Origin: Phoronis australis
Taxonomy: Eukaryota; Animalia; Phoronida
Length of the DNA: 64,000 bases
Reading direction: 5' to 3'
NCBI GenBank assembly: GCA_002633005.1
Contig: NMRA01000979.1
Span: 1-64,000 of the forward strand
A program made the position numbers and the translations under genes. Of this stretch, positions 2,159 through 50,200 are shown piece by piece. The notes below the pieces were generated by a model. The model made no database searches, was not told where the DNA came from, and worked only from the letters and a program-made list of their open reading frames with translations. Each line of letters begins with the position of its first letter. Positions within the stretch are counted from its first letter, which is position 1.

Positions 2159-2233
2159 TTACCGGAAGTTCGCATAAGTTTCAAAGGACTCCAAAAACCG
2201 CTGGGCCATCAAATATAGAGACTTGTACTGTTC
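2159..2233 (-). CDS. RPTP terminal exon (D2 end, YANF tail, stop)
   Basis: ttttccag acceptor; [24 protein letters not shown]. Confidence 0.9.
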   Translation of the reverse strand, partial: EQYKSLYLMAQRFLESFETYANFR

Positions 2234-26200: not shown

Positions 26201-29200
26201 TGCAACAAGAACACATTTTTTTCCAATTGATACATTCACTGGAGGACAATAATAAAATGTTACAAAAGAGTCATTAGCAATTGACTTGATTTGTTGTGAA
26301 TCTAAATTCATTATGAAGAATACACATCATGTATACAGTACAAATAAAAACTAACAGCTCCTTTTCAGATGATACACTCGGTTTTAGCTAGATAAAATTA
26401 GTTTTGCCCAATAGGTTGCGCATGTTGTAACAACATTTTCTGTTGCCCACACTGCAGTTTGAGAAAAGAGCACAATGGTATTAATGTGGTCGATCAGTAT
26501 ATTTTAATCGTATGGAATCAAGATAATGGATAATCGTTGGAACACACCCTGTCACATTTGTTGCAGGTCTACATCTATGAATTCTTACCAGATTCTTGAA
26601 TCCTTTCCTCTACAAAAGGACTCCATTCTCCCCACTTGACAGTTCGGGCTTTAACCTGCAACAGGGTTGACATGGAAACTGTAGTGAACGCAAACGAGAA
26701 CTGCTCCGAAGTGGGGAGACTACACCTAAGGTGGTCTCAGGTGGCATAATTAAATGAAAAAAGTGACGTTAACGTCGTCCCCTATGGCGCGCCGCTCATG
26801 TTTTTTCTTATCATCAACACCCATCGTCATCGTAAACATTTACCGTAAGTGTCGTGTCGCCGGCACCACCATTACCACCGTCATGCTCACAATGTCTTGA
26901 CTTATGCATGTATTACATGCGTGGCATACGCGTATGCTATACTTACCCGAAAGTTGTAGTTTACATATGGTCGAAGACTAGGAAGCGTAATTGTTGTACA
27001 GTTTTCGCAGGTTGAACTCCCTTGATGAGTTGAGTTATCCGACAGCCCAAGTAAAGCACGGTCGGTTTTGTTACTGATCTCGTAGGAAACAAGGTATCCA
27101 GTGACTTTTCCTCGGGGTGGACACGGTGCATTCCAGGAAAGTTTAACTGCTTCGGGATTGCTGTCCACCACAGAGAGATTGGTCGGCGCTATCGGTGCTG
27201 TAGTGACATAACAGAAAGTACCATGTTCTTACGTGCTATAGTATTTTCAGAAAAAGAGCACTGCGATTATCTGTACGACTTAGGGGTCGCAGACCAATCA
27301 GGTGTTTAACAAGAGTTGTAGTAAATTGGTGGGAATTAATCGCATAGTGCTTCAACTATAGTACGAGATGAATTCTCCCTTCCAACATATCTATGTCAAC
27401 GCTTTCCGAAATACAACCAAGAGCACGACGTAGCCAATGTTAGGATTGTTGCAGTCAGAAACCGGTGTTACCTACCAGTGCTGGCTTTAATCTACATGTA
27501 TGCTTTGTCAAGTAACGGGTTTCAAAGAAATCTGAATTGTTCTACCTTCACAGCTGCTATGGAGCTTACCTGGATCGTAAAATGATCATTCACTGATCTA
27601 CTCACTTGTGAGTTGCCAATCACAAAATTTGGAATCCCAATTTAAAAAATTGTCATTAAAAAGTCAATTTTCAAAACGACCACGTTTCAACTTCAGCAAA
27701 TTGAAACCTTTGGAGACTACACTAGTTTTAAACAGGTCAGTAGGTGAGTTGAAACTGGCTAAATGTGTTTTTTACTTTTGACGTCGTTTCTCAAATCGTG
27801 TCATCAACTTTTTGATAGAAGACTACCAATGATAAAACGTCCTGAGGAACAAAAGATTTGTGTGTTGGTTTGAGCAATGCAACTATCCACGATAAGGCTT
27901 TGATTTCAATTACACATTGTGGGGAAATTTGTGTTCCAAGGGGTAACTACCTACTCTAAAGTATCTGCCAATAGTTAATTACAATCAAGTTGTGTTTGTA
28001 GATTGTCGCAGCCGAAAGTGATACGCTAGATCGTGTATGGTAGTCGGAAAATGTGAGGACGATAACATGTTTCGTCAAAGCATGGGGGCTAGCACTGGCT
28101 TGTCTCGTTTGTCGCAAAATATATGTAAAACACAACAGTAGAAATTTACACATAATATTAAATATTGACATTAAGTACGCTTAGAATAATTTGATGAACT
28201 TCGACCTCTTAACAGCACAAATTGGGCCAACATTGAGTATCAAAAATGCATATTTTCTTTTAAACCCTCAAAAGTACCAGGTTAAAGAACACAAAGCATT
28301 ATTAATGGAACAAGAAGACGAACTTTTTAAAATAACTTCAAGCAACAGAGCCTTCTAATGGTAGGGCTTTCGGGATAGAGAAGATCCCGAGTCGCACTTC
28401 AAAATATAAAAGTATAAATCTTCGAGCCAACTAACTGTCCAGTTAATCAACTGCCCGTATTCCAACTCACCACTCTGATCTGTCGTAATGTTGATCCAGT
28501 CAGTCCACGGTCCAGCCAACTGTCGCACCGACGCCTGAACTCTGAATGCGTACTCTGTGTACGGCGTCAGGTTTAGGAAAGTGATATCACGACTACCTGT
28601 TTGATTTATGTAGACATTAGCCAAAACGCACGGACCGTTTTCGTTACGTATGCTGTATCTGTAGTTGCTTACATTTCCATTTTGTTTCATACATTCGACT
28701 TCGTCCCATGTAAAGGACAATGACGAGTTCGATTTACTGATCAAACTTGCGTTTCGTGGAGGTGCGAAAGGGGCTGAAAAAAGAACGTACATGAATAGCA
28801 CTGTCACTAAGAGAACTCACCCACTAACAGTATACATTTTACGAACGGTGACAAAACAAGGACCTGCATACACTTGGGAAATTGGACAGATCTATAATAA
28901 AAAAGCCTCGTCAGTGAGATTGTGTTTTTCGGCTCAGAATATTTGGGTTATAGACCATTCATAGAACAGATCCTTACTACAGTAGGAAATTCGTCAAACA
29001 ACCCTAATTCGTCATGCGCGGGACCAACACGAACGTTAGTCCAGATGACATACAGTACTATCAACGTCTCTTCGGGATGCAAACTGTGCTGACCAAAGAC
29101 TTAGATTCCATGTGAACTTACCATTTTCTACACTAAAATATCGGTTACAACCACGCAATGACATTGATACGATTGGCAACTGAAAAGTGCACGAAAATTC

Positions 29201-32200
29201 ACAAATGTTTATGCAAATTAGAAGACTGACATCTAAATTCCCAATCCTGTGAGTTTCTAGGTCTGGCAATACCTTCACGAATCAAACAGTCCTATTCATC
29301 ATAAAAACACAGTGGATCTATTTAAAGACAACCAAACTATTCGAAAACATGGAACATCTTGAGAAACCAAAATTACCAACAACTGTGTAATGCAGTTGGA
29401 TCTATCCGAAAAAGCAGCAGGAGCTGGCGCCCCTCAGCCTAGTAGGTCAACGTATTGTGTAGTATAGCTAAAATAACTCCTACATCGCGTGTATCATAAA
29501 ATTGTCAATAGACGTGGTGCAGAAATCATCTCGATCTGAAAAAGCAGGAGTGAAAATAAATCTGACTAAACGGTGGAAGCTTTATAGGGCGTATACAAAG
29601 CGACTAATCTTTTAAAAATTGACTTTTATTCCCGTGCAATCCTGTCTTTTATTACCCTTTTCTTGTGTAGTGACATTCATCTTCTCAACATGCCCAGTTA
29701 GCGTTGGTCCCACTGGAGCAACTTCAATGACGTATGAGGAAAAGGGAAATGCTTTCAACGATGCCTGATCTTCGTTTACAGACATCCAATTCGAAGAAAC
29801 TTCAGAAGATCCAGGACACTGAGATCTAGACAACATTCTGTATCGCCATACATATCCCCTCAGTTGACATCCATCGTCTTGTGCTGGCGACGTCCACTTG
29901 ATATGTAATTCGTCATTCAATTCCTCAGTTTTTAGTCTTTGAACTTCACGCAGACGTTCTTCTTGCGAGCTAAATATTGATTCAATTGTCCAAGGTCCGG
30001 GACCTGTCGCTGTGTACGCCCGCAATATCACGGAGTAATTTGTGAACGGAGAAAGGTTTGATAACCAAATAGATGTATTCACTGTTGTGTAAGTGTTTTT
30101 GAGGAATGCCACTGAACACCCCGTCGACAGCGTTGTTAACCGTACACTGTAATTTGTTATTATGCCGTTCCGTAAAGTGCAATCTGGTCGCAGCCATGAC
30201 ACATGGGCAGACCTGGCGGAAGCACTGATGCTGACATTTTGTGGCCCAGTAGATGGCGCTAAAATAAACAGTGAAATTGAGTGAAAGACAAAGACATTGG
30301 GAAGCATAATAGCTCAAATCATGCCAAGACAAAACTATATCATACAACTAGATGCATGTTCGTTTTAATGTTTCAAAAACACATAAACTACATGTACAGT
30401 TTATTATGGCTTCAGAAGCCGATTACTGAATACTTAGCAAACTACCATGCATGAACTATATCAGTGTCACCAATTTTTCGACCTAGTAAGTGTCACCAGA
30501 ACGCATTCACAACAAACATAAAATGTAGAGCACAACCTGGAGGAGGTATTTCAGTTCACTAATTCGTTAGAAAACGAACACCCGAGAAAATACCAAATAT
30601 GAATTTACCCCAAACGACAGTTGTTTCATTTAACCATTGGATATGATACCATGGAGACCCAAGAACACGACGAAACAAAACTTGAGTAGTAAATTACCTC
30701 TCGGATGGATAAATGGCATTAAAAATGTCAGTGTATGAAAGGCAACACTAAATGAATGGATATGTGACCGGTGGAAGGAGGGAAAGCTAGCGTTAGGCAC
30801 CCACAAGAGGTGTTGTATATGGAGGTAGAGAAAGGAATAAACCTTCACCTCTCACATATTTAAGCCAAAATGCGATTACCTTCTTCTTGTGTAGTGACAT
30901 TCATCATGTCAACCTGCCCAGTTCGCGTTGGTCCCACTGGAGCAACTTCAATGACGTATGAGGAAAAGGGGAATACTTTCAACGATGTCCGATTTTCGTT
31001 CACACACGTCCAATTCGAGAAAGCTTCAGAAGTTCCAGGACACTGAGATCTAGACAACATTCTGTATCGCCATACATATCCCCTCAGTTGACATCCATCG
31101 TCTTGTGCTGGCCCCGTCCATTCGATATGTAATTCCCCATTCAGTTCCCCAGTTCGTATTTTTTCAACTCCACTCAGACGTTCTTCGTGTGACATAAATT
31201 TTGTTTCAATTGTCCAAGGTCCAGGACCTGTCGTTGTGTACGCCTGCACAATCACGGAGTAATTTGTGAAAGGAGAAAGATTTTGTAACAAAACAGACGT
31301 ATTCACTGATTTGTAAGTGATGTTTACGAATGCCACTGAACACCCCGTCGACAGCGTTGTTAACCGTACACTGTAATTTGTTATTATCCCGTTTCGTAAA
31401 GTGCAATCTGGTGGCAGCCATGACACATGGGCAGACCTGGATGACACACTAATGCTGACATTTTGAGGTTCAATAGATGGCGCTACAAGAAACAGTGAAA
31501 TAATGTCAATGACAATTACAATGCGAAGCACAATGGCTCACATCACACAAAAACCACAAACACAATAACCTAAAAATAGTTATATCGTACAACTCGATAC
31601 ATTTTAATATTCAAAACAGCACATAAGCTACAGTTGATCATGACTTAAGATTCCCATTGCTGAATGCTTAGTAAAATATCAGACATAAACTATCACCAAT
31701 TTACCAATCTAGAAAGTGCCACCAGATTGCATTTATAACAAACAACAAATGAATAACATAATCTAGAGGAAGTCTTTCATTCACTAATCCTGAGAAAACG
31801 AGAACCCGAGAAAACACCAAATGATGAATTTCCTCCAAACGACAGTTGTTTCATTAATCATCCGATATGAAACTGTGAAGACCCAAGACCATTACGAAAC
31901 AAAACTTTGAGATGTAAATAAGCTCTGGGAGGGATAAATGGCATTAAAATGTCAGTGTATAAAAGACAACACTAGACAAATGGATATGTTAACGTTGGAA
32001 GGAGGTAAAGCTGACGTTAGGCACCCCCAAGAGGTGTTGTATATCGACCATGAGAAGGGAATAAAACTTCAGCTCTCACCATTTTCAGACAAAATTTGAT
32101 TACCTTCTTCTCGTGTAGTGACGTTCATCATCTCAACCAGCCCAGTTCGCGTTGGTCCCACTGGAGCAACTTCAATGACGTATGACGAAAAGGGGAATAC

Positions 32201-35200
32201 TTTCAACGATGTCTGATTTATGTTCACATACGTCCAATTCGAGAAAGCTTCCGAAGTTCCAGGACACTGAGATCTAAACAGCATTCTGTGTCGCCATACA
32301 TATCCCCTCAGTTGACACCCGTCGTCTTGTGAGGGTGCCGTCCACTGGATATGTAATTCGCCACTCCGTTCCTCACTTTGTATTCTTTTAACTCGACTCA
32401 GACGTTCTTCGCGTGAACGAAACTTTGATTTAATTGTCCAAGGCCCGGGACCTATCGCTGTGTATGCCCGCAATATCACGGAGTAATTTGTGAACGGAGA
32501 AAGGTTTGGTAACAAAACAGAGGTATTCACTGTTTTGTAAGTGGCGTTTACGAATGACACTGAACACCCCAAAGACAGCGCTGTTAACCGTATACTGTAA
32601 TTAGTTATTATACCGTTCCGAAAAGTGCAATCTGGTGGCAGCCATGACACATGAGCAGACCTGGCAGAAGCACCAATGGTGATATTTTGTGGAGCAGTGG
32701 ATGGTGCTACAAGGAACAGTGAAAAGTGTCATTGATATGGATTATGAGAAGCGCATAGGCTATAATCATGCACATACCATAAACCAATTAACTTATCATT
32801 AGACAAATCATACAAGTATGTATCGCAGCAATATAAATATCCTAAGTTTTTCATTGTTGGTTGGTCTTCAAGCATAAGCTAACAATGTCACTAATTTTGC
32901 CAATATTTTATTTGTCATCGAAACAAATTCACATCGATTGCGAATGAGAAAATCCTTCAAACGGAATTGTTCATTTTAATCAGTTTCTGAGATATTTTCA
33001 AGCCACACGATCATGGGAAGACGATACCTAAAAGATTTACTACCAACCGGATAAATGAGTATCAGGAAGAACCACCGGTGTATAAGAAATAGCAACAATG
33101 AACTGAGCAGCATATGAAAGGTGGAAGGACTTTGGGCACCCAAAAACGGTGCTTTACGAAGCATCAGAAACGAATAAAATTTGGTTTACCATCACTCTAA
33201 ATGAGAATTTGATTACCTTCCTCCTTCGTAGTGACGTTTATCTTCTCAACTGGCCCAGTAAGCGTAGGTCCCACTGGAGTAACTTCAATGGAGTATGTGG
33301 AAAAAGGGAATACCTTCAATGATGCCTGTGTGTCATTCACATACTCCCATTTTGAGACAGGCTCAGAAGTTCCAAGACACCGAGATCTAGACACCAACGT
33401 GTATCGCCACGCAAACCGCTTCAGTTGGCACCCATTGTCTTCTGGAGGAGACTTCCAACTAATATGTAGTTTTCCATTGCGTTCGAAGGCTTTTAATGTT
33501 TGCACTCCACTCAGACGTTGTTCGTGTGTAGTAAACCTTGTTTCAACTGTCCAGGGCCCAGCACCTCTTCTTGTACACGCTCGCACTCTCACAGAATAAT
33601 TGGTGAACGAAGAAATGTTTGAAAACAGAAACGACGTATTTGTTGTTTCATAAATGATGTTGATGGATGAATTTGAACACCCTGCGGAGAGTGTTGTTAA
33701 CCGTAAATAGTACTTCGTTATTACCCCGTTGCGTGAAGAGCAATTTGGTTGGAGCCATGACACGTGGGCAGAGCTGACTGAAGCATTAGTGCTAACACTT
33801 TGTGGAACACCAGATGGAGCTAGAGGGAATATAGGAAATGATGATGCAGAGTATTAGGAGTGATGTATCTATGCCATCTACATACCACAAATGTACGAGT
33901 CCTCATCAGAACCTGATCAAAGTAAGCCTGCAAACTATAAACATGACAAATGGAGCCTCGGGACCCTGTAGTGTGAGATTGTCAGAAATCTAAGATTTCT
34001 AAGATGGATACGCATGAAATCAATATGAATTCCGCTGACCCACGCGTGGAAATTCTGCAGTCCCGGACTAAAGATTAGCATACACTGATTCTCAGATATC
34101 AGACAAGATGAAGCAAAATGATGGTATCTTTCCATATTTCAAAAACTAAAAAAAACTGTTAAATTATAATAAGGCTCTCATTAAAGTAAATAAGGAACAA
34201 TGACGGTTTCAAGTATATGTCTTGTTTGTACATTCTTCAAGCTCACCATCTTCAAGAGTAACTCCCTCTATCGACCTTTCTTCGCCCATAGATTCTGTTT
34301 TAGCCACAACCTTGATCTCATACTTAGAATTTGGCTGGAGAGCAGTGATGTTCTTCCTGGTCGATTTAAGAATTTCTTTAACTTCGTTTCCAGTTTGCAA
34401 ATCTGCACACTGCACCACTTGAACCAGGCTATGCGTTAACTCGTATCCCATGATGGAACAACCATTATCTTCGGGTTCCTTCCACATAATCACCATAGAG
34501 CGGCTGGTTGTGTTGGAGGGATGTATAATTAGATTCTGTACGGGGCCTGGTGCTAGAGAACAACACACAAAAACTAACTGAGTGTTTCAATAACTCGTAC
34601 TTAAGATAACAACATGATCAAAATGTAGGGTGCAAAATGAATCAAGACTAATCAGCCTATGTGCATTTTTGGCACTGAGAATGAACAACCTGACAATGTT
34701 AATCCACTAGAATAACGTGTGAAGTGGATTGCCATCGTCGTGACTGTGATACCGCGTGAACATTCCTGAAAAGCTAGACCAGTAAACAAACACAATGACA
34801 AAGGAATATAGGCACAGCAGATGCAAAATTGAAAAAAGCGACACCAGTCGGAATAATTGACTAAAGTCATCTCCATCGCTAGAGAAATACCTCTATTCCT
34901 GCTAGTAATGGTCTTTTCATCGGACAGGCTTGACATGTGTTTATTGAAGGCTCTGATTCTTACTCGCCAGGTGGTGCACGCAGCCGTATACAGTGAGGTA
35001 CTACTCGATGTAACGTTGGGCAACATAATCCACTTGCTACCTGTTGTTGTGTTGATATACTCTATTACATAATAGCCAGGTGTTCCGCATCTCCAGTTAA
35101 ATAGGTCAACCTGAATGTGTCAGAAAGGAAATGGATTATACATGAACATGAAAAGAGATTTCGCCAATATTAATTTTCTTGAAGGAGATCGTTATCTTTT

Positions 35201-38200
35201 TGAAGGCCTCATATTTTCATTTTGACACATTTTACCTAGGTTAACAGGTATTATGAACCTGACAAAAATTACCGAAACCTTTGTAGATTTGTAATGTAAA
35301 GCTTATGGGCTAGAGGTTACCTTGCTATACCCCGGCCACTTTCTGAGAGTTTAATATATCAACTCAGATGACATATGATATTCATGACTTTTTACGACCA
35401 GATACAGTAATCAATGCGAGAATTCCAACATACGTTGGACATGAAAATGTCTGCAGTTGGGCATCGTGTGTACATTTTAGCCACAGTATAGACTAGTTTA
35501 GAGGTCCACAACAATTCTAGGTCGAGTTCCTGTCATTCTATAAGTGACGTATATCAATGGCCAGTCTTCAATATCGGCCTGTTAAACGTCCTGGCGACAT
35601 CACTAGAAAGACGAGTACGCCCATCAAGTTCTGCTTGAACAAAGACATGTTGTTTGAACGTTTGAAACCAAACGAAATACGAGCATGGATCCACTTACAT
35701 CCGTCGCTGACCTAACGACCCGCGTGACGACAACTGCGTTCGACATATTGGTGCCGTCACCCGGATCTTCTAATATAATGCTCAGATGAACTCGGGCACT
35801 TACTGCAGACTGGATACAGTACCCAACATGATTGTTAATTAGCAATGTTTTTTAAATGAAACAAATCTTACCAAAATGGTTATGTTAGCCGAGTCAATCT
35901 CCCTGTTTGACAATGTGAACTGGGGGGTTTCTGGTTCTGAAATGCATAATTTGATTGAATATCACACAATAAATGCAGGAACAGTAATGCAAAAATTACA
36001 CTTTGTCTTTCAACCACACTGGTCTTTATGTAAAATCCCAAACTTTCCTGACTTTTTTTACGTTTTACAGGCTTTTTTTCTTGTAAATTGTTATTTATGT
36101 AAACACCATTGTGAAACAAGGCTACTACGTTCGTACCATCCCGATCGTAGCATCACACTTACCCTAGAACGGAGCTTTAACCACGCATCTGAGGACATCA
36201 TAAATCAAGTAAATCACGTGACTTTCAAAGTGGGAAATAACTAGCGGGATTACTTTCATCCATGAAGGGAATCGAGGCGTCGGAAATATCCTTGATAGTC
36301 CGGATTCTAACGTACCTGCGCAGACTTCTACTTCAGGACTTGCGTTCCCAAGGAGATCATCTCCAATCTTGATCCGTATCCTTACTTTGTATATCTGGGT
36401 AGCGTTCGCTTTCGAGATATTGCAAGTAAAAACTGTCTCATTCCTAATATTGACAACTTCTTTTGATAGCCAGCTCTTATCATCCTTCTGTTTGTACTCA
36501 ACAACGTATTTTTCCACATGTCCCACGCCATGGCCAGTCCCACTCCGCCACCGAGTCCACCGGATGTATAAAGCTTGCCCTGTTCTGGTAACGACAGTCG
36601 GAGGTTGCTTGAGTCTGGCGATTTCTGTAAAGAGGTATATTCAAAGAAAAGTAATCTCTAAGAATCATGTTCTATTAAGAATCAGACGATGTTTTGTTCG
36701 TACATGTACAATAAACTAGCGGTCGATTAACCTTAAAGCAAATACTTAGGCGGCAGTAAAGCTACCTTCCGTCAGAGAAATCCACCTCTTATTTTTCAGA
36801 CTACTTGCCGTTAAGAAGTTGGCGAAAATTTATTGCAGCTTTAAATGATTTAAATACTGAAATACGCTTAGCATACTTAATTTGATGTCATTTCATGTTA
36901 TACTTAATTATTTTGATGTCATTTCATGTTTACCAACCTGTTCGACAGTATGGGTATGTCATGTACCCAGGAGCACAAGCACCATCTGGACAGTGACCAG
37001 TATAAGGACTACAGGTGGCGTTACTGTCACAATGGCCGCACGTCTGCTCACAGTCAGCACCGTAATATCCATGACTGCAGCCTTAAAAGTTAACCCACAA
37101 AATAACAGGACATGCAAACAAAAGTTGACAGCATTTGACCAAGAAAAGGAAACCACTTTCTTTTATTCACCATATTTGTAACCAACTCAACATTATTATC
37201 AAGATTCCAAAATATTGTTCCTATATCTTGTTTTGAGAAACTTCATCAAAACCTATTTAGGATTTTCTTTCTTGTTTCTTTTTTGTGCACCTGTAGTGTA
37301 TTTGAGCTTGCAAGAATTGAATTATTGCGGATAAATAAAACAAAACAAAAATAATATATGTTTTAGGCTGCATTGGGAATTTCAGGGTCACTGCTCTACA
37401 ATTAATTATTTTAGAGAAGTTACCAGATGGGAACCTTAATTACAAGAGATAACAATACCCAATGTGTAATTGAGTATCGAATACTAAGTGGCAGACCGCA
37501 GTATAAAACCAAATGAATACATAATATCAAATGGGTATTGACCGATTGCCTACCAAGTGGCTCGAGCAAAACGGCAAATTCAATAATAAGTACCAACTGG
37601 GTGCAAACTGCCAAATGGGAAATATCACTGACATGGCTGCAATTACAAATTGAATAGCTTGCACACGAGTCTGGTCATTTCAGCAGTCAGAGCTTGAAAC
37701 TTTTTTTAAAAGAACGACATTGTACACCTGGGCCTGAGAATTAATCTATACTCGAAGCTCGACCTGAAATTTGATCAAGTACAGTGCTCTTACAAAGTAA
37801 ACTTTCAAATTTGTATTGAATAGGAGTCTGATTTGAGTTTAAAGAACTCGATGTCTCGGTCTGTGTACAACGCAGCACACAATAAAATACCAATGCAATT
37901 TTGCATACAATAAATGGTCACAAACCTTGACTGCACGCCATTCCCTTGAATCCAGCAACACACGAACACCCGTATGGATCATTGGTACACACATACTTTC
38001 CTCGACACCCGTCCACGTGACCGTCTTCCGAGCAGGAAAATGAGCAGTTACTTCCAAATCGGTTGCCTCCACAACCTAACGGCGCAAAAGAAGTATCTCC
38101 AGTCAGCTATTAGTGCTTTTTAACGATAACACTATCTTTCAACAAAAGTAAAATCGCAATTGCCAGGGCAAGAAAACTGACTGGATTTTGGCTCCTCAAA

Positions 38201-41200
38201 ACTGTTTTTAAGTTATTTAACAAGCACAGTGTAGCTCAGTTCAAATTGTTTGTGAAATGAGAGTTTATGTAAGATTACTAATTAGACGAGTTGTCGTTAG
38301 AAAGCAAGAGACGACTGTTCTCGCCAATCTTCAGTGCCATGTTACCTTTGAAGGAGGCGTGATACCTCCGACGTTATAAGAGTGTTTTTTGCGAGTATTG
38401 CCCAGCAGACCTGATTGAATTCGAATTCAATGATCTTTCCCGGATCGATCAACACCTACATTTCATTAATCACGTGGTCATTGTCATTGAGCTGGTTAGT
38501 TAGTAGTATTTGCAGTAGTGTAAGGTAGTGCTTACGTTTTATAGTGACTTTAAGTAGGCCTACAGCCTGCACATCAATTCCAACAACATATGAATTGTAA
38601 TAAGAATATGTACACAGACCGAATTAGGCCATTTGTCATTCAACACACGACAGGAGAGCAATGAAGAAAGTATTAATATAATTAAGTCTATGCTTCCACG
38701 CGGACTTGACTAATCTTGAAAATTATCCATGACAAAGGTGGAATATTAATGTTAGGCACTAAGTTAATCATAAACTGAACCATCAAATGTTGCAATCCAT
38801 CTTAATTGTGAATGAGATACAACATACACGTAACCTTTCATAGACAGCAGTATATGACATGTTATCCCATACGCGTTGAATCTATCGAGGGAAATACGGA
38901 CATTTAATATTCGTTTTTGTATTCACCTGCCGCACTACTTTAACAGTGACCTCTGACATGGATAGTTCAAAAGCCAGGTAGGGCAATGTCGACTCGACAT
39001 CGTTAGGTGGTTATGTAATCAAACTTTCCGAAAATAGCTTAAAGTGATACAATTGCAGCGGTGTAAATAATACTCAACATGTAATCAGGTCTCAATCGTA
39101 ACATCTGGAACAGGGTTGTTAATTATATGACAGTTCTGTCTCAGTTTTCATTTCCTAATTATTATATCGTCTGCAACTAAGGTGCCGATTCCTCGGTATC
39201 TACGATATCAAATGTTGTTTTTATTTAATTATTTTCAGTAGACGTTACAAGTTCAGTGCAAATTTGCCGGTGTTCTCCTCCCTGTTATCTCTTTTCAAGT
39301 AATACATCGTTACATTTAAAACTGTTTCTTTTGCTACAAAAACTTGCAACCTAACGCACAAGTACATACATATAGGATGTGATCCGCCACGTGAGCAGTC
39401 TGAGTGAAGTATTTAAAAAATCTGTGGAAAACTGAAACAAACTTAGGAATTCGAAGCGTATCGACATTATTCTGCATTTCGACCTCGACCTTCGGTCTCG
39501 GTCGATACGCAGAATAATGACTCGTAGGATATTACATCATGTACGCCACTCTTGGTGCGCTTTGTGTATTTATGTATGTCATAACGATAAGTTTCCATGA
39601 GAAGATTAAGAGTTACAGCCCTATGCTTGGCCAATAGGGAGCGCTGGAAACGTGACCTATAATGTTTTATACATTGTGAGTTGCATGCCAATGCTTGAGT
39701 AAAATATAATTGTTTATGCGAATCATCACGTGCTTTCACCTATCGAACAGATATCTCCGCGAAATCCCGGGGGGCATATACACTCGCCCGTGATGTCGTG
39801 ACAAACACCTCCGTTCTCACATTGCGGACAGTCGTCTGTGCAGTCGCCACCAAATCTACCTCGACGGCAAACTAGAAAATGAATTGAAATCAGATTATAC
39901 AGAGTCAAAATATTTACATTACACCCTACTGACCCTCAGTTACGGATCTTAAATCTTACAGTGTGACGGGACATTGAAGGAGAATGTCAGCCTGAAAGCA
40001 ACCTATTTTTGTATCAATTTAAATCGAGTAGTTCCACTTGATAATAGCCACTACAGCTCTGTTACTTGACACCTGACGACAGACGGAGGTGTTGAAATTA
40101 ATTAATGACGTCAGAGGTTTGAACACAGTGAAATCACTGTCGGTAAAATGCCGGCCACTGACGGATACGGAGAAGTTTCACGGCCTCACACTTGGTATTA
40201 ACGGCGTACGTTTCCTTTATCGTTACTGCGAGCTTCTTTCGGAGCATTATGGGCTCTCGAGGAAATCGAAAAACGATATACCAGCTTTCTTCGCAGCTTC
40301 ATAGTTCGCACAAGCGGGAAAGATACACCACACCATTGCGTCACTCACTCTGCAGAAGAACCATTGACGTAGCGGCATCGTTTCTTATCTCCCTCACAGG
40401 TTAACGCGGCAAATATCGACTAGATAAGATTGACCGTATACGAGGTTCTGCTGGTATAGACCGATTAAGACAGTAAAAAATACTAATTAAATCGGGTGGC
40501 ATTCTCCTTTAATGACGCTCTGACCTTAATGCAAGCATATTTTTTAATCATACCACACAGCACTGAACCCAACGTCGATTATTCAATCGTGCAGAGCTAT
40601 TCAGAACAATTTGCTTTGTTACAAAATGGAAAGATGTAATGTATACAAATATGATTTGTTAAAACATTGTTCCAGACATAAAAAACATAGTTGAAGAAGA
40701 CCTTGTAACAATTTTTTTTTAACAGCGATACATATTTTCAACCTCTAACAATTAGTCGAGTAATCCCAAGCACTTCTCCACTTGACAGACGGATGGTGTA
40801 GACTCCACCGTGTCCCTCCTCTACGCTGTCGATGCTGTTTGTTAGACTTCCCTGCCAGCTACTTATGTATCCCTCATTGTAAAATCCTTGGTTGTCTTTT
40901 TGCCACTGTATACCTAATGGGCCTATACCGTCGAATGTTATTGTTGCGCGATCTCCGACGCTAACTCTCGTTGCTAGAGCGCTTGAAGCTTGTAAAAGAT
41001 CAAGGAAACCAACATGTCAGGCTTATGAGAAACAAGCATTTGCCTTAAAGATAAAATCAAATATTTTATTGATGCTATCATTGAGTAGGCCACATGTTGA
41101 GCATGGAGATATAAAATCGACAAAAATGAAATTCAACCGTTTTCGAACTGGACTATGTTGAGATACAAGCACAAAACTGGGACATACGTGTATACTCACT

Positions 41201-44200
41201 TCATTTCAACTGCAATCTGTTTCAATTTTGGCTAAAACTTGACACCGATTTCTCACCAAACTGACAAAATTGCGACAGCATATTCCAAAAATATACATGT
41301 ACAACATTAGTAAACAGTTAGGGGTAAGGTGTATTAACTTCACATAAAACTTCCACAAAGCTTTGACAAAAACGTCTTTATTATTGCGACGAAGGTTCGA
41401 TTATGCTGCCAACTAATTTTGTCAAGATGGTAGAGTTCTGTTAAAGTTTGTCTAGTTTATTTTTGAAATTACTATCTACTCAAATACCTGCAATCACTGG
41501 TTTCCCCCACACTTCCACTTCACACAAAGAAAGCGTTTCTGATTTGCTGTTGCCATTCTTTATGATGTACAGATATCTCCCAATGACGGGACGGTCACAA
41601 GCTATATACACTGTAGTGGCGTCACTAATGTTGCCGGTGTGGTGTTTGCACAGAGCGTCGGTAGAGGTCGCTGATGGAGTGTCACTTGTATTGGAGACCC
41701 GGACTTCAAAATCTTTTAAAGATTCGTCAAGATCTGGATGCACATAGCAATTCTTATTCATAATTAAGTACATGTACCATAAAATTGATATCAATCTGAA
41801 ATTGTTATGACGAGCACGGGAATACATGTATTTTCGTGTAGATGCTCAAATACTTTTCGTGTTCTGCTGTTTCAAAAAGAGTACTTTCTGAGTACGGAGT
41901 CTCACTCTATGTCGTTGTAGTCCACAGAAATCCGCTTTGAAAACCGGGTCTGAAATATTTCTCCGTAGCTAATTAAATCTTATGTCACACACACTTAATG
42001 GCACAGAACTCAAGTCCTGGAATATCAACTTCGGTCTGGCGTTGCTGAGGTTACGCCACGCATGCGTGGCATTTCTTTGCATGTGTTTGTTCCGGTGTTG
42101 CTCATTCCTGTGGAACTTACTGGCTCTAAAACTCTTTGGAAATCTGCCGCTTTTCAACTGAATTGCAAAAAGTCATATTACTAGAAGGACTTGAAAAATT
42201 GTTGATGGTGAAGACCGCAGCAGAAGCAAACGTTAAATAATTTAATTCATTAAAATCATCATTTCGCATACCTGACAGATTTAAAATGTTTTTTTTTTAA
42301 TTCTAAAAACCTAAAGTGTCACCAAAATTGAAAAAATAACAAGGCGTAATAGTACCTTAAACAGCAACGCTGAACGTTGATATCGCATATAGTGCAGATA
42401 GAAAATATTGTCACACATTTATACATGCTCACTCATAAAGAATTAAAAGTGACACTGATGCACAGTGGCAGTCAGATACGTCCAAACGTCACCTGTTGTC
42501 ACCCTCATAGAAAAATGCTTGCCAAATTTCACAAAGACCCAGCAGGGAGAAACACCTGAGGATGCAAAGATAACAAACTGCCATTAGGGGGCGCTTAAGT
42601 AGTCGAACTGTAAAACATTGTCAGCAATTCTCTTCCTACCAGGGACACATTTACTGATTTCCATAACAATTAGTAGAGTGCTTTGGCCGATAGAGTGATG
42701 GACGCCAAAGACAGCAACTCGGAGGCGTACTTTAAGTAAAATCAATCTGAAAACAAAAAGTGTCATCGAAGTTTACCAAATTTCATAAAAATCTGCCAAG
42801 GAACTCCTGAGGATAACGGAGAAAAATAAAAAGGCCACACACGAACACAGCGTTCATTGGATAAGTCCAAAGGTCGTTGTCACATGTTGTTACCTTCATT
42901 AATACAGATAAGGTATAGAATATACAGCTAAGAACGCAACAAAGAGAAAATTGCAACTAGGAGGCACCACGGTAGTGGGCGCCGTCCAAACATCATCGTC
43001 ACATGTCCTTTTCCAAGAAAGAAGATATAATTATCCTAAGAGTGGTTTGGATGACACAGAGGCTGACGCCAAAAGCAGACTCAAAAATAATAAAAAGGTC
43101 ACTAGGTGGCGTGTACAACGTCAACTCCTTGTGAAAACAGAAAGATGTCATCGTCTATTCACCAAATTTCATGCAAATCCGGCCAGAAACTCCAAAGACA
43201 CATAGAAAAACGGAAAAATACAATTGCCCCTAGGGGACACAGGAGTTGATGAATACGTCGGAAAGTCGACATCACCTGCTGTTGCCTTCATATAAATACA
43301 CCTGCCAAACTTAACAAAAATCCTGCAAAGGAATTAACAGATACAACCACGGACGCAAAAACAAAACTGCCACTAGGAGGAGCCACTGGAGTCGGAGCTG
43401 TCCGAAAATCATCGTAAGCCGTCAACTTCCTAGTAGGAACATCTGTCATAATCAATGTTATTGTGGTTTGGTCAGTTGACGGGTAGATAGCAAAACCAGA
43501 CTCGAAAACCGTAAAAAAAAAAGAAAAAACAAAACAAACGGCCACTAGGTGGTGCAAGATAGTCTAATCCACTTGAAAACGTAAAAATAGCGTCATATTT
43601 TTAATACATGTAGATACCTATTTGCCAAATTTCGTGAAAATTTATCGAACACCGAAGATACGGAGGCAAACTTAAACTACTGAATTTGGCACTAGGAGGC
43701 ACACCGGTAGTCGGTGATACTGGAACAGGTATTGTGCATTACCTTAAACAAGAGACATTGGAAGACATCTTTTAAGATAATGTTACTAAAGAAAGTGGAC
43801 TGTGCAAATTAACAATATGCATGGCAAAAAGACAAATGAACACCTGTTCCACAGATGTCATCATTTGAGAATAAGAACACGGGGGAACTGGACATAAAGG
43901 CGGGAATTCAAGATAAAATGCAAAACATTTGGTTCTATGCCAAAACGCAAAAGTGTAATGTTCCCCAATAGACAAGAAAACATCAGCGTTTTTTTCGAAC
44001 CCGAATTATTACACGCAAAATCGCGCGATGGCTTTTTTTAAAGTCAAATTCTCAATTCCAGGTTAATAAAAAATCATGAACCTTGTCGTTTTTTCTTTTT
44101 GGTTGAACAGGGAAATACTGCTATGTAGTGTGAGAAATTACAGTGTCGCCGTGTGTCAAAAAGCGGGATATTTTGATCGTGCGACGAAATGTCAGGATTT

Positions 44201-47200
44201 TTTACAAGGTTAACTTTACATTTTTAAATTTTATTTCCGTTGTTGGTCAGTGTTCGAACATCACCGAATAAGTGTGCTGACACGCCGTGCCAGTTAGTCT
44301 GAAAATTTACTGGCCTGGCTGCCAAATTGCTTTTAAATGTTACTGACCCAGCTGCAAATCCAATGGCCCCGGGCCAGGCCACCGTGTATTTCGAACACTG
44401 GTGTAGGTACAACAGATAATATTCACTGTCAAATCACCTGGGTAACAGGTAAACATTCTAGAAATCAATTATTTTTGAAACAATTGAAATGAGTAACAGG
44501 GTATGCAAAAACAAACTAACCCTAACCCTAAAACTTTAATTCTTTAAATACATTGAACACATCGAAAATGGGAAGGAGTTCGTCCTCTCTCAAGATTATT
44601 TTTCCAAATTTTATTAAAATCCGTTAAAGAACTCCAAAGATACAAAGGCGAACGTTAAAAAAATACCAAATGCCGTCGCCGTCGTTGTCTGTTGTCAACT
44701 TCATATCAATACACTTGCCAAACATAATGAAAATCCTGCATAGAGATGCAGCAACATATGCAAAACACTGTCACAAGAGGTACATCGGTAGTCCGAATGG
44801 TCCGAAAATCATTATCAGTCATTCGCTTCAAAATGCCAGTGGTTTATTTGATATAGCGTCGGAGGCCAACAAACAGACCAGAAGACAGTAAAAATGGCCA
44901 CTATTTGACGCAAAATACGTCGAGCCTACCCGAAAACGGGAAAATGTCATCAATTACCAAATTTAATAAAAATCCGTCAAGAAACTTCAGAGAAACAGAG
45001 GGATACGGAAGAAAATGAAACTGCCACTAACGTGAACAAAGTTCTTAGAATCCGTCTGAAAGTCGTCGTCGTCCGTTTTCAAATTCATAAAAATACACCC
45101 GTAAGTTCAATAAAAATCCTGCAATGAGCTAAGGAGATAAAGCTATGGGCGCAATTACAGAACCACACTGCCACTAGGAGGCACCACAGTAGTCGAAGTC
45201 GTCCAAAATCATCGTCAGCGATCCTCTTCACCTTAGGAACATATATCCCTGTTTTCACAATCATCCCTAGAGTGGTTTGGTTAGTAGAGGGGTGGACGCC
45301 AAACAACAGACTGGGAAACAGTAAAAATGGCTAATAGGTGGTGGAAAATACCCGGAATCCATACGAAAACAGGAGGATAGCGTCATCCATTACAAGATGT
45401 CGATGTTCCGAATTTCATGAAAATCCGTTGAAAACTTTGGAAGATGCAGAGGTAAACGTAAGAAATGTAAATTACAATTAGGAGACGCACAGGTTGTAAG
45501 ATCAGTCCGAAATTCGCCGTCATCATAGAAATACATCTGACAAATCTTATCAAGATCCTGAGGGGCTTAGAAGATTAGCTGCGGACGCCCAGCGGACGAT
45601 AGACACCCACACGCCCGCCAGACAAAGATGAAGGTAATACGCACCCACATATAAATGGGGTAGGTGCATAATAATATAACAAAGGCGACATCTTTGACTG
45701 TGTGTACTGCCTGTCGTCTAAACCTGTATTTTATCAGAAATTTCGACCTTTTGAAATTTGATCGTGGTTTGTTAGCACACTGAAAGCTGGCCCAATGAGT
45801 TCAGGGTCTTGGAAATATCAAATTTCATCCCCGATCTGTCATCAGTTTCACAAGTCAAACATCAGTCACCAGAAGAATTTTGTAGTCGTAAAACTAAAAC
45901 AGTTAATACAACGGCAACCGCTCTACGTACGCATTAAACTTGCAGAAAGGCAACTTTCGATTATTTATTTTCTGCAGTTTACATGCAGGTTCAAATAAAA
46001 ACAAAACTAGATACTTTTAACAGAGAGGACGGCTACACAGTTACGGAGATTTTTTGAAGTTTTTGTCTGGTTTTGCATTCTTTTAGGATTAGGAAAATAA
46101 ATAAAATAGTTACTTGAATGGTATCAAAATCGAGAGTAAAATCTGAAGAAACGTAATTTAAATTATGGAACATTTACGATTGTCAGTTTGAATGAGTTTT
46201 TATGTGCCTGGTACATCTCGTCAACGTTGACGCAAATCCACATTCAATCTACATGTAATACCTGAACACAAGCTCACGTTGCAATGCTTCCACCGAACAG
46301 AAACAAGGTAACACCACGGTCCACCTTCCGTGTCGTCAGGATTCCGACAGAAATTTTCATGGGATTTCGGTTTCTTAGTGCTTTTCCACATTTTACATTT
46401 TTCGCCATTGCTTGCTGTGTTGACTTTGCCCATGTAATCCTTCCCGAGTTCTGTATACTTGCAATCATCTAAATTGACATTGTTTAAAAGCGAGGCATTT
46501 ATCATTGTGCATTCATCTCACGGACGACACTGAACAACAAACATCTTGGCGATCTTTTGAGATACTATTCTGAAGAGTTTAATAAAAATGTCATGTTGAA
46601 AATTAGAATTCATATACAACGTGTCATTATTGATAAAATTGATGTCAGAGACAACCCAACGCAGACAATTCAAAACTGTTTAGCTAAATCAAATAAATCA
46701 ACAATGTAGGACAACGTAACATTCAAAATAGGCTTAAAAAATCACAGTGCCACCTAGCACTAAGTTGAGTTACCATAAATTCACCGAGACAATAAAGAAA
46801 AGTTGACATTTGTTCAGTTAAAAGAGGTGCAAGATGGTGTAAGGTGTTCATGGAAAATATGCTTACATTTTTATTCAACGTTTTCTTGGTTATAGATTAT
46901 GGGTCTGGGTAAAAGAAAACCAAGATTTGCTTATGGTTTGATAACCTTTTAAGCTCAGACAGTTCCGTTATAGCCTTGGACAATCGTACGAATAGAATCG
47001 TATAATCCTAGTCAAATCATAATCGTATCGTAATAACATCGTAATTACAAAATGTGCATCATAGTCATATCGTTATCACATCTTAATTACAACGTAATCA
47101 AGTGCACCTCTTCCCGACAAAGGCGATTTGTAAAAAAATGGCCACGGTTGTTTAAAACTATTTTAGTAAAAGGTTCTGTGGTGATTGGCAAAAGAACAGG

Positions 47201-50200
47201 TCACCTAAGGCAAGTGAAATTAAAGAAATTACACAGCAAGTGCCACTACAAAAACACTCACGAGAGCCGTTTCCACTGGTTATGTGTATCCCGTGAACAA
47301 CGAAGGTTCCATTGAATTCCGCTCTCCACCACGGATTTTGCAGATGACTTCTCTTCAATGTATGTGAACAAGACTTTCCCTTCAAGAAGTCTGTAGAATG
47401 ACTGCCATCAATGGCCTTCCCGGCGTCAGCAGTGAAACTGAACGAGTGAGAAACAAGACTCAGCGTCGACGACTGGTCAGCTTTAGAGAGAGGAATTTTA
47501 CCTACATTTGAACAAAACAGGTATTGTACGCATGCTTTCTGTAAACAAGGTAACTGGTGAATAGATGAAGACAGGCCGGAGAAAGTAATTACAACTTGAT
47601 ACGCATGTTTCCCTAAATTTTAAAAATAAAAGCGATATCTGAGGTTGTTACAGTGATCCAAAATACAGCACCGGCAGCTATCAAACAAAGAAATATTCGG
47701 ATAATTAAGGGGAAATCTAGTATATGCAAAAATAACATATTCCATACGTGCGCACTTCTTGACTCCCACGCCATTTTACCAAATGTACATTTGTCGAAAA
47801 GTTATGTTCGTGAGTTGAGAAACGACGTCAAAAGTAAAGAAAAAACAAATTTCGTCACTTTCAATTCAACTACTTGCTTATGTTTTACTAAAATGAGCAA
47901 GGAAAGGGCAGTAGTCGTCGAGAATTTCAACTAGCGCAAGTGGAAACAGAAAATGGAGTCGTTTTTTTCGGTAAAAGGTCGAGCAATGAAGCAATTCGCA
48001 TGGTACCAACTTGAAGATCGGTAAGTGGACTTCCTGGCATGCAAATCAAAATCTCCCGACCATAGAATCACCCTGACCATCAACTAAAACACTGCACATC
48101 ACTGGTTGCAAAAATGACAACAATTCAAAAATATTGTCCATTACAACACGATTTTTTAATTCTTCCACTGTGGTTGTCGGGCAAAATAATCCACCCTTAA
48201 CGATGTCGCCGAGTATATGCTACTAACAAACGAAAGCCATTGAAACGTTAGCAGAGGAATCCGATTATATTTGCTGTCGGGTACAGTAAGGTATTACCAT
48301 AGTGGGGGCTCACAACCCTAGAATACAAGTTAGTCTTGCTTCCAGTAGCCGTGAAGACGTTTACACCAGTGTGTATATGAAACTCCTTGTAGTCTAGTCT
48401 GCTTGATATTGACTGGACTTCTGACGGTGATAACGTTGAGACACTTGCATCATACACGCTGGCTGATATGAGGTCAGTGGCTAGGTCAACGTTACTTCCG
48501 CCGTAGACGCGGACAGTTCCGGAACCCATTGACGAAAGTGTACTCAGACGGTAGAGTGGCTCTGAAAATTTTTTATGAGATATTTTATCCGTATGTGAGG
48601 CTACTCGCGCTCAGGTCATTAGAACGTGTATCAATTGCGTCATTAAATAATAAAAACAAATTGATAAAATGAAAAGTAAAATTAGTTAAAGATACATGGA
48701 ACGCGAAAAACAGACTCAATTGGAATATTGGAAGTGGTTCCGTGACACTAAAATGGAATTGAACCTGCTCACACGGTGTTTTTAAGGTTAGTTCGTAATG
48801 GTTTTTAATTTCTGTTGATATAAAACCATTTTCTTTTAGTTTCAAATTTCAGAAAAAAAAAACAATTTGTAAACTGCTCGCCCCTTCGCCTATTTTCTTC
48901 TACAAGGCAAAGCAGACATCCTTATTTGTTATGGCAAGACACAGACGTAGCACACTCCCCTAATATGGAAAATGTGATCTTTGACCTCAATGGACTTCAA
49001 GCATTTAACTGTGAGCGCATGCATGTACTTATCATGAGTGGGAGGTAGATTACAAATTCTGTGGTGACCACAGAGCCATTCCTTCGTGCATGGTTCAACC
49101 GTGCGCGCACCCAGGGTGGGGGGGGGGGGGGGNNNNNNNNNNNNNNNNNNNNNNNNNNNNNNNNNNNNNNNNNNNNNNNNNNNNNNNNNNNNNNNNNNNN
49201 NNNNNNNNNNNNNNNNNNNNNNNNNNNNNNNNNNNNNNNNNNNNNNNNNNNNNNNNNNNNNNNNNNNNNNNNNNNNNNNNNNNNNNNNNNNNNNNNNNNN
49301 NNNNNNNNNNNNNNNNNNNNNNNNNNNNNNNNNNNNNNNNNNNNNNNNNNNNNNNNNNNNNNNNNNNNNNNNNNNNNNNNNNNNNNNNNNNNNNNNNNNN
49401 NNNNNNNNNNNNNNNNNNNNNNNNNNNNNNNNNNNNNNNNNNNNNNNNNNNNNNNNNNNNNNNNNNNNNNNNNNNNNNNNNNNNNNNNNNNNNNNNNNNN
49501 NNNNNNNNNNNNNNNNNNNNNNNNNNNNNNNNNNNNNNNNNNNNNNNNNNNNNNNNNNNNNNNNNNNNNNNNNNNNNNNNNNNNNNNNNNNNNNNNNNNN
49601 NNNNNNNNNNNNNNNNNNNNNNNNNNNNNNNNNNNNNNNNNNNNNNNNNNNNNNNNNNNNNNNNNNNNNNNNNNNNNNNNNNNNNNNNNNNNNNNNNNNN
49701 NNNNNNNNNNNNNNNNNNNNNNNNNNNNNNNNNNNNNNNNNNNNNNNNNNNNNNNNNNNNNNNNNNNNNNNNNNNNNNNNNNNNNNNNNNNNNNNNNNNN
49801 NNNNNNNNNNNNNNNNNNNNNNNNNNNNNNNNNNNNNNNNNNNNNNNNNNNNNNNNNNNNNNNNNNNNNNNNNNNNNNNNNNNNNNNNNNNNNNNNNNNN
49901 NNNNNNNNNNNNTTTTTTAAATGATAGTTTTAAGTGTAGAATGTATTTTTGACGAGGTGAAAACTCGAAATCGGTAACACAAATCCGGTCACGACCCGTT
50001 TGAAATACACTGAAGTAACGAAATGAGTACAGAAAGCGAATGGAAGTATTGTAGCCCCTAGATGGCCCCGCGTTGGTTTGAATGCGCTAAATCTCCCCTT
50101 ACTCCCAGCTCTCCTAATGTTGTTTATCCATTTTTCACGAAATTCTTGGCTTGCAGGGAACTCATAAAATTCAGATTTTTATCTCTCTTGTTGTTTTTGA

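Follow-up and report, generated by a model that had tools for sequence, protein, structure and literature searches.

What is the ligand-binding head of an angiopoietin receptor doing on a phosphatase? The question arises from the first 64,000 nt of contig NMRA01000979.1 of the phoronid Phoronis australis (assembly GCA_002633005.1, forward strand; this whole stretch is the window), where a first-pass annotation had reported a module of the TIE/TEK (Tie) receptor kinases wired to a protein tyrosine phosphatase (PTP). We joined exons by hand through splice signals and phase and obtained a single gene of 41 exons on the minus strand, running from 48561 to 2159 and encoding 2,773 residues in 8,324 nt with one terminal stop. 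The predicted product is a receptor that crosses the membrane once and joins a Tie-type Ig2-EGF1-3 head to a stalk of ~15 fibronectin type III (FN3)-like domains and two PTP domains. At a probability of roughly 55%, we read it as a brake on tyrosine signalling, in which a predicted-active first phosphatase domain (D1) would be switched by a lineage-specific protein bound at the variable tip of the head, and not by an angiopoietin.

From the N to the C terminus, the order is a domain X0, one half of an F5/8-type domain, a kringle, the other F5/8-type half, the Ig-EGF1-3 head, the FN3-like stalk, a membrane helix, D1 and a second PTP domain (D2). The head occupies four exons, each a multiple of three in length with phase 1-1 and AG/GT ends:

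40743..40988, minus strand: Tie Ig2-type Ig domain without cysteines, from profiles, family alignment and predicted fold
39740..39871, minus strand: EGF1 of the Tie module, eight cysteines, matching Tie2 189-229 at E 4e-9
37926..38075, minus strand: EGF2 of the Tie module, eight cysteines and DPYGCSC, matching Tie2 236-277 at E 2e-5
36938..37081, minus strand: EGF3 of the Tie module, eight cysteines, from position and family alignment

Reading the minus strand confirmed the motifs on which the Tie assignment had been based, namely GGVYTIR and TRLIVR near 40803-40744, [22 protein letters not shown] near 39821, and DPYGCSC with GFKG near 37980-37950. Searched alone against PDB, the EGF2 exon matches Tie2 at E 1.9e-5 (chain residues 236-277), with the next match at E 0.3. 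For the EGF1 exon, the best match in one stretch is Tie2 (39 bits, 189-229); by summed score, WIF1 ranks first through a match over five repeats. The Ig exon alone gave no Tie match at E ≤ 10 and the EGF3 exon alone no match at E ≤ 1; profile and position tie both to the module. Pairwise BLAST of the Ig exon with protein P0001 was not significant, and word-index protein searches, a method of low sensitivity, drew a blank with the Ig exon and with EGF2 and retrieved a single protein with EGF1.

We searched 1.84 billion representatives with a profile made from the Ig exon, the EGF1 exon and one scorpion protein; 1,699 matches had E ≤ 0.001, of which we examined the best 150. Their whole-module scores are bimodal: 69 proteins lie at 106–164 bits and the remainder at 87 bits or below. 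The W, GxY and RLIVR positions of the Ig domain are each kept in 59–68 of the 69 module holders, and the Phoronis Ig exon keeps them too. With a vertebrate-only Ig2 profile (bowfin Tie2 and lamprey Tie), the Ig exon scores 27.5 bits alone and 18.5 bits in the full model, compared with at most 7.1 bits for generic I-set domains and 4.0 bits for the best shuffle (871 of 1,000 shuffles reported). An all-family Ig2 profile gives 38.8 bits against 28.7 for generic domains, and a nine-kinase profile fails to separate them (30.3 bits for the Ig exon, 30.2 for the best generic decoy). Ig decoys and family rows were both gathered by a profile containing this Ig exon; since the family rows were found in that way, the Ig tests are not fully independent. 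A fold predicted for the Ig exon from 36 family rows (predicted local distance difference test score, pLDDT, 83.5) aligns to Tie2 125-209 with Z 9.0 and a root-mean-square deviation of 2.1 over 73 residues. Tie2 ties with Dscam in Z, and its identity of 27% is the highest among the 50 rows listed. Foldseek with the same model returned Ig domains, Tie2 being absent among the matches listed. An earlier fold from a two-row alignment (pLDDT 63) was jelly-roll-like with meaningless matches and was discarded.

These results also bear on whether the head could consist of ordinary MEGF10/SCARF-type EGF repeats beside an unrelated Ig domain. The missing PDB match of the Ig exon, a fold that fits Dscam and other Ig domains as well as Tie2, and the nine-kinase profile would suit such an arrangement. 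It is refuted because EGF2 matches only Tie2 below E 0.3, the module scores are split, and the vertebrate-only profile sets the Ig exon apart from generic Ig domains. EGF1 and EGF2 moreover match Tie2 in order, and exactly three EGFs in the Tie order follow Ig2, whereas MEGF10/SCARF scavenger receptors carry a long uniform EGF array without a Tie Ig2, and MEGF-type proteins reach at most 87 bits with the module. We give this explanation next to no credence. On the split in scores, the first-pass assignment to the Tie type rather than the MEGF/SCARF type stands, and by profile and predicted fold we class the Ig exon as a divergent Tie Ig2. Five other proteins (P0009, P0069, P0046, P0037 and P0022) have the Tie Ig2-type domain twice or three times, which shows that the module is also duplicated in tandem.

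The other end of the protein is encoded by the following features:

21893..21998, minus strand: transmembrane exon, a hydrophobic run followed by basic residues
15140..19469, minus strand: PTP D1, PF00102 on five exons, with the motifs [24 protein letters not shown]
2159..8129, minus strand: PTP D2, PF00102 on four exons, ending at the stop codon

In D1, which reads [17 protein letters not shown] and VQTAAQY at its motifs, the KNRY, WPD, HCSAGxGR and Q-loop elements are present; the sole deviation is a Tyr-to-Phe change in KNRY (KNRF), common to four other family members. D2 keeps CX5R (HCLDGCTRSG), and WPT replaces WPD. Under established PTP chemistry, D1 is predicted to be active and D2, which lacks the general-acid Asp, to be regulatory. 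A single D1 exon scored 35–42 bits against single domains of many receptor PTP (RPTP) subtypes in PDB, none standing out, and a PTP-domain tree built without vertebrate reference PTPs gave this gene no supported sister. The gene shares with the classical tandem RPTPs (LAR/R2A, PTPRM/R2B, PTPRA/R4) a transmembrane segment, a juxtamembrane wedge region, a D1 with full catalytic motifs and a D2 without WPD; their heads are an Ig array, a MAM domain or short and glycosylated, whereas the head here is of the Tie type. No kinase motif occurs in any of the six frames of the window. By these sequence features the gene classes as a tandem-domain receptor PTP and not as a Tie kinase.

How far does the likeness to Tie2 extend to its ligand? 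Tie2/TEK and Tie1 (PDB 2GY5, 2GY7, 4K0V, 9LV4) share with the Phoronis protein a cysteine-free Ig2, three eight-cysteine EGFs, FN3 domains and one membrane helix, with identities to bowfin Tie2 of 24/81 in Ig2 and 63/131 in the EGFs. They differ from it in having Ig1, Ig3, three FN3 domains and a kinase, where this gene has neither Ig1 nor Ig3, ~15 FN3-like domains, a tandem PTP and an extra F5/8-kringle unit. As described in the available text of PMC8294587 and PMC8560823, Tie2 binds the fibrinogen domains of angiopoietins through Ig2, mainly by Phe161, Ile162, Val165 and Pro166. In an alignment anchored on the C strand, the Tie2 strand Phe161-Glu169 (FIHSVPRHE) corresponds here to FYNEGYISS, in which one of nine residues, the Phe, is kept. 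The Tie2 strand motif was found in 2 of 70 rows, both of them bony fish, one by pattern and one by eye. Across the 69 rows, Ig2 is conserved least in the loop that follows its C strand.

The first-pass annotation had proposed that the phosphatase may bind fibrinogen-related proteins or oppose a Tie-like kinase in the same genome. In its joint form, the ligand of the head would be a fibrinogen-related protein of the host, much as angiopoietins are for Tie2, and the phosphatase would act against a Tie kinase sharing that ligand. The Ig2 homology, real by profiles and fold, fits this proposal, as do the coexistence of a Tie-head PTP and a Tie-head kinase in Patiria miniata, Acanthaster planci and Branchiostoma lanceolatum and an amphioxus Tie kinase model (P0149) that carries a fibrinogen C domain of its own. 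A precedent for opposition appears in the available text of PMC5146956, where VE-PTP dephosphorylates Tie2. Against the proposal, the binding strand is kept at one position in nine, its motif is confined to two of 70 rows, both bony fish, VE-PTP has no Tie head, and Tie1, with the same layout as Tie2, is described in that same text as having no identified ligand. The low conservation of the strand leaves the fibrinogen-ligand idea unsupported, and we regard the proposal as improbable. In the amphioxus Tie-head kinase model P0149 (KAI8490900), the fibrinogen C domain lies within the ectodomain.

We favour a lineage-specific protein ligand because the angiopoietin motif is confined to two bony-fish rows of 70, Tie1 has no identified ligand and Ig2 varies most in the loop after the C strand. 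On the same side, the three differences between RNA and assembly listed for the Ig exon (40787, 40874 and 40877) all change a residue, two of them in that loop, and the further exonic differences listed, at 30908 and 33280, also change an amino acid (5 of 5); 40 of 544 rows were listed, so no rate is derivable. With no Tie2 ligand site, the head probably senses a different, lineage-specific partner. In the mechanism we propose, the Ig2-EGF core would form a compact platform, as in Tie2, and the recognition surface would consist of the kringle, X0 and the loop after the Ig2 C strand. The access of D1 to its substrates may then be altered when ligand clusters the receptor, or when the long glycosylated stalk is kept out of tight cell contacts, with D2, missing the general-acid Asp, in a presumably regulatory role.

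Outside the Ig2-EGF core, the ectodomain departs from the Tie layout in the following features:

48298..48561, minus strand: X0, the first recognised exon, 88 codons without cysteine, phase 1-1, open and in frame, with RNA depth resembling that of other exons
47262..47501, minus strand: N-terminal half of an F5/8-type (F-type-lectin-like) domain, a sub-threshold match (E 0.013) to PF22633 positions 1-38 of 91
46262..46468, minus strand: kringle exon between the F5/8-type halves, PF00051 E 1e-13
41488..41733, minus strand: C-terminal half of the F5/8-type domain, PF22633 positions 46-89 of 91, E 0.012
23299..36624, minus strand: stalk of ~15 FN3-like domains directly after EGF3, nine by Pfam fn3 and the others by pattern
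29656..33819, minus strand: four tandem 603-nt exons with two FN3-like domains each, 57–79% identical in protein, which lengthen the stalk

A family Ig1 profile that recovers vertebrate Ig1 at 31–47 bits with those rows left out found nothing above 7.6 bits before Ig2 or elsewhere in the six frames of the window, in which 896 N bases are unreadable. In left-out scoring, 44 of the 53 family rows with room for Ig1 reach at least 20 bits, and this gene 2.3. Ig3 is likewise absent between EGF3 and the stalk, where an fn3 exon follows the EGF3 exon and the Ig3 profile stays at or below 6.6 bits. The F5/8-type-kringle unit occupies the place of Ig1. With the kringle skipped, its two halves align as one domain to protein P0035 (E 5e-6), and no further F5/8-type half was found in the window. 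The kringle is positioned at the sugar-binding loop of the F5/8-type domain, and the 150 proteins examined gave no kringle match; as its exon is phase symmetric, it could be skipped. X0 was tried as a Tie Ig1 and rejected (0.5 bits), and it has no match in Pfam, PDB or Atlas. The long stalk is predicted to be glycosylated (62 sequons in 2,083 residues), and its last FN3 resembles the membrane-proximal domain of RPTPs (PTP_tm E 0.045). The first-pass annotation had overlooked both the absence of Ig1 and Ig3 and how common the pairing of this head with a PTP is.

An F5/8-type domain near the tip raises the alternative of a glycan-sensing immune receptor. F-type lectins bind fucose through the motif H-x26-R-x-D-x4-R/K; this is absent from the F5/8-type domain whether the kringle exon is in or out, and the kringle occupies the loop concerned. 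The nearest published analogues, likened by description, are the lectin-EGF RPTPs of the snail Biomphalaria linked to schistosome resistance (subgroup 1C / SudRes1), for which the available text of PMC13712769 gives the same broad layout of a galactose-binding/fucolectin domain, an EGF region and two PTP domains ([quoted passage not shown]). An immune role is also in line with the expression of a sea urchin Tie kinase in coelomocytes, reported in the available text of PMC6494969. The snail proteins, however, are classed there as SCARF/MEGF-like, and that text describes neither an Ig2 nor a long FN3 stalk (PMC13712769), which sets them apart from this gene by description. We consider a glycan ligand unlikely, slightly more so than a fibrinogen-related one.

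Several observations weigh against our preferred reading of a phosphatase brake with its own lineage-specific ligand. The angiopoietin strand keeps its leading Phe, and a fibrinogen-domain ligand could use other residues. The differences between RNA and assembly may reflect populations or paralogues rather than selection. RNA depth is low, a short exon ahead of the membrane helix (22256-22211) is a candidate only and has a weak donor, and no exon-exon junction of the gene appears among the 15 of 85 RNA joints listed.

The last two of these points would also fit with head and phosphatase belonging to two adjacent genes, or with a head skipped in the main transcript. The link between head and phosphatase rests on one open frame over 41 exons. 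Also in line with a split, the RNA runs X1 and X2, chosen by species label, cover 29.4–49.1 kb, upstream of the PTP half, and the acceptors of the Ig and EGF3 exons are weak (AAG), with a TAG at 40973 as an in-frame alternative for the Ig exon. What argues for one gene is that phases agree across all 41 exons without a stop, that RNA depth is even from X0 through the fourth tandem exon, and that the same head-to-PTP layout recurs in 13 database proteins, two of them from Logan contigs of ~5.5–5.7 kb. Reads at 29.4–49.1 kb lie on the expected strand, and depth per exon base is 1.7–10.9 (X1) and 2.2–8.7 (X2) in 18 of the 21 exon-bearing bins; the other three, one containing EGF1, are swamped by repeats. 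Given this evidence, a split gene or a skipped head is very improbable.

Introns near the module (37284-45824) hold repeats that draw many RNA reads of 90–95% identity from other genome sites. Upstream of X0 no signal peptide was found, and an N gap lies just upstream at 49133-49912. At 51292-51047 on the minus strand, a short open stretch has a PVYENV tyrosine motif resembling the juxtamembrane PVYSNV of the gene, either as a piece of a neighbouring receptor gene or by chance. Nested in the D1-D2 intron on the opposite strand (9344-9994, plus) is an intronless open reading frame of the LRAT family (PF04970 E 3e-17, NCEHF motif).

How widely is the pairing found? The first-pass annotation had placed the module on both kinases and phosphatases, and the family agrees: Pfam finds a PTP in 13 of the 69 module holders, a kinase in 10 and neither in 46, many of which are fragments. 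With names looked up for 30 module proteins, the PTP-tailed holders come from a spider, a scorpion, two amphioxus species, two sea stars, a sea urchin, two sea cucumbers and two crinoids (four echinoderm classes among them), with two Logan proteins, and the kinase-tailed ones from bowfin, lamprey, two sea stars, a sea urchin, an acorn worm and four amphioxus models. N-terminal additions differ among holders (LCCL, C-type lectin, PAN, F5/8). The invertebrate Tie-head RPTPs, annotated as PTP delta-, mu-, kappa- or T-like (XP_035698254, amphioxus; XP_038066639, sea star; XP_030852447, sea urchin; XP_067124638, scorpion; GFQ89280, spider), share Ig2-EGF1-3, an FN3 stalk and a PTP tail with the Phoronis gene, and their D1 domains are 38–45% identical to it. 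They mostly keep an Ig1-like domain, which this gene does not have, and no close orthologue was found among the module holders examined. Judged by these sequences, the head is an old module of a broad invertebrate receptor family ending in a PTP, a kinase or neither, and the gene appears to be a variant member of a widespread, apparently unnamed invertebrate group. The available text of PMC5336234, PMC11925454 and PMC8662651 is silent on a pairing of Tie head and PTP. In the literature searched, whose coverage leaves out subscription journals, we found no description of a Tie Ig2-EGF head on a PTP. In their survey of sea urchin phosphatases, Byrum et al. (2006) reportedly named lectin-bearing RPTP groups, and such proteins may already be described there.

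Two tails on one head could have arisen by swapping, as the first-pass annotation had proposed for the Ig2-EGF cassette. The module tree that we built comprises the 24 modules whose tails are known (this gene, 13 PTPs and 10 kinases) and leaves out the 46 without a tail. An amphioxus PTP (XP_035698254) and an amphioxus kinase (XP_066294642) are sisters in it at 100/99; their identity is 63% across 1,049 columns as far as the membrane helix and 88% within the head, and past the helix they are unrelated. A single clade of kinase-borne modules is rejected (p 3e-21), and without the amphioxus PTP it is not (p 0.14, or 0.12 after removal of more rows), nor is a single old split. Support for swapping on repeated occasions therefore goes once that protein is dropped. 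One recent tail swap in amphioxus is indicated, if both predicted gene models are correct, and there the whole ectodomain is shared; for the Phoronis gene, whose module has no supported sister, the tree does not bear the proposal out. The sea star protein P0137 (XP_038074861), a Tie-head kinase, has an F5/8 domain and, next to the membrane, an FN3 of the PTPRU type, a hint that a kinase tail was set on a phosphatase stalk.

A bolder and rather doubtful view would see an undescribed family of invertebrate receptors in which the Tie head serves as a movable platform for recognition, with near-identical ectodomains joined to tails of opposite effect (on for the kinase, off for the phosphatase) in the way of paired immune receptors. 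The Tie kinases of vertebrates would then be one surviving branch with a fixed angiopoietin site, and the Phoronis gene would show exon shuffling at work on the platform, which lost Ig1 and Ig3 and received a kringle in the former sugar-binding loop.

The scorpion fragment P0159 ('angiopoietin-1 receptor-like') and the sea urchin fragment P0167 ('Tie-1-like') cluster at 90% with the full-length PTPs P0118 and P0141, respectively, so fragment names may mislabel phosphatase heads, and scorpion or sea urchin entries under these two names should be treated with caution, as they can belong to phosphatases. If pairs of kinase and phosphatase with shared ectodomains are real, on/off signalling by paired receptors could be tested directly with them in the immune or coelomic cells of invertebrates. 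The ligand-binding head of Tie2 is thereby no longer a speciality of vertebrate vessels but an old module that sits on invertebrate phosphatases at least as often as on kinases, which suggests that the angiopoietin site was a late addition.

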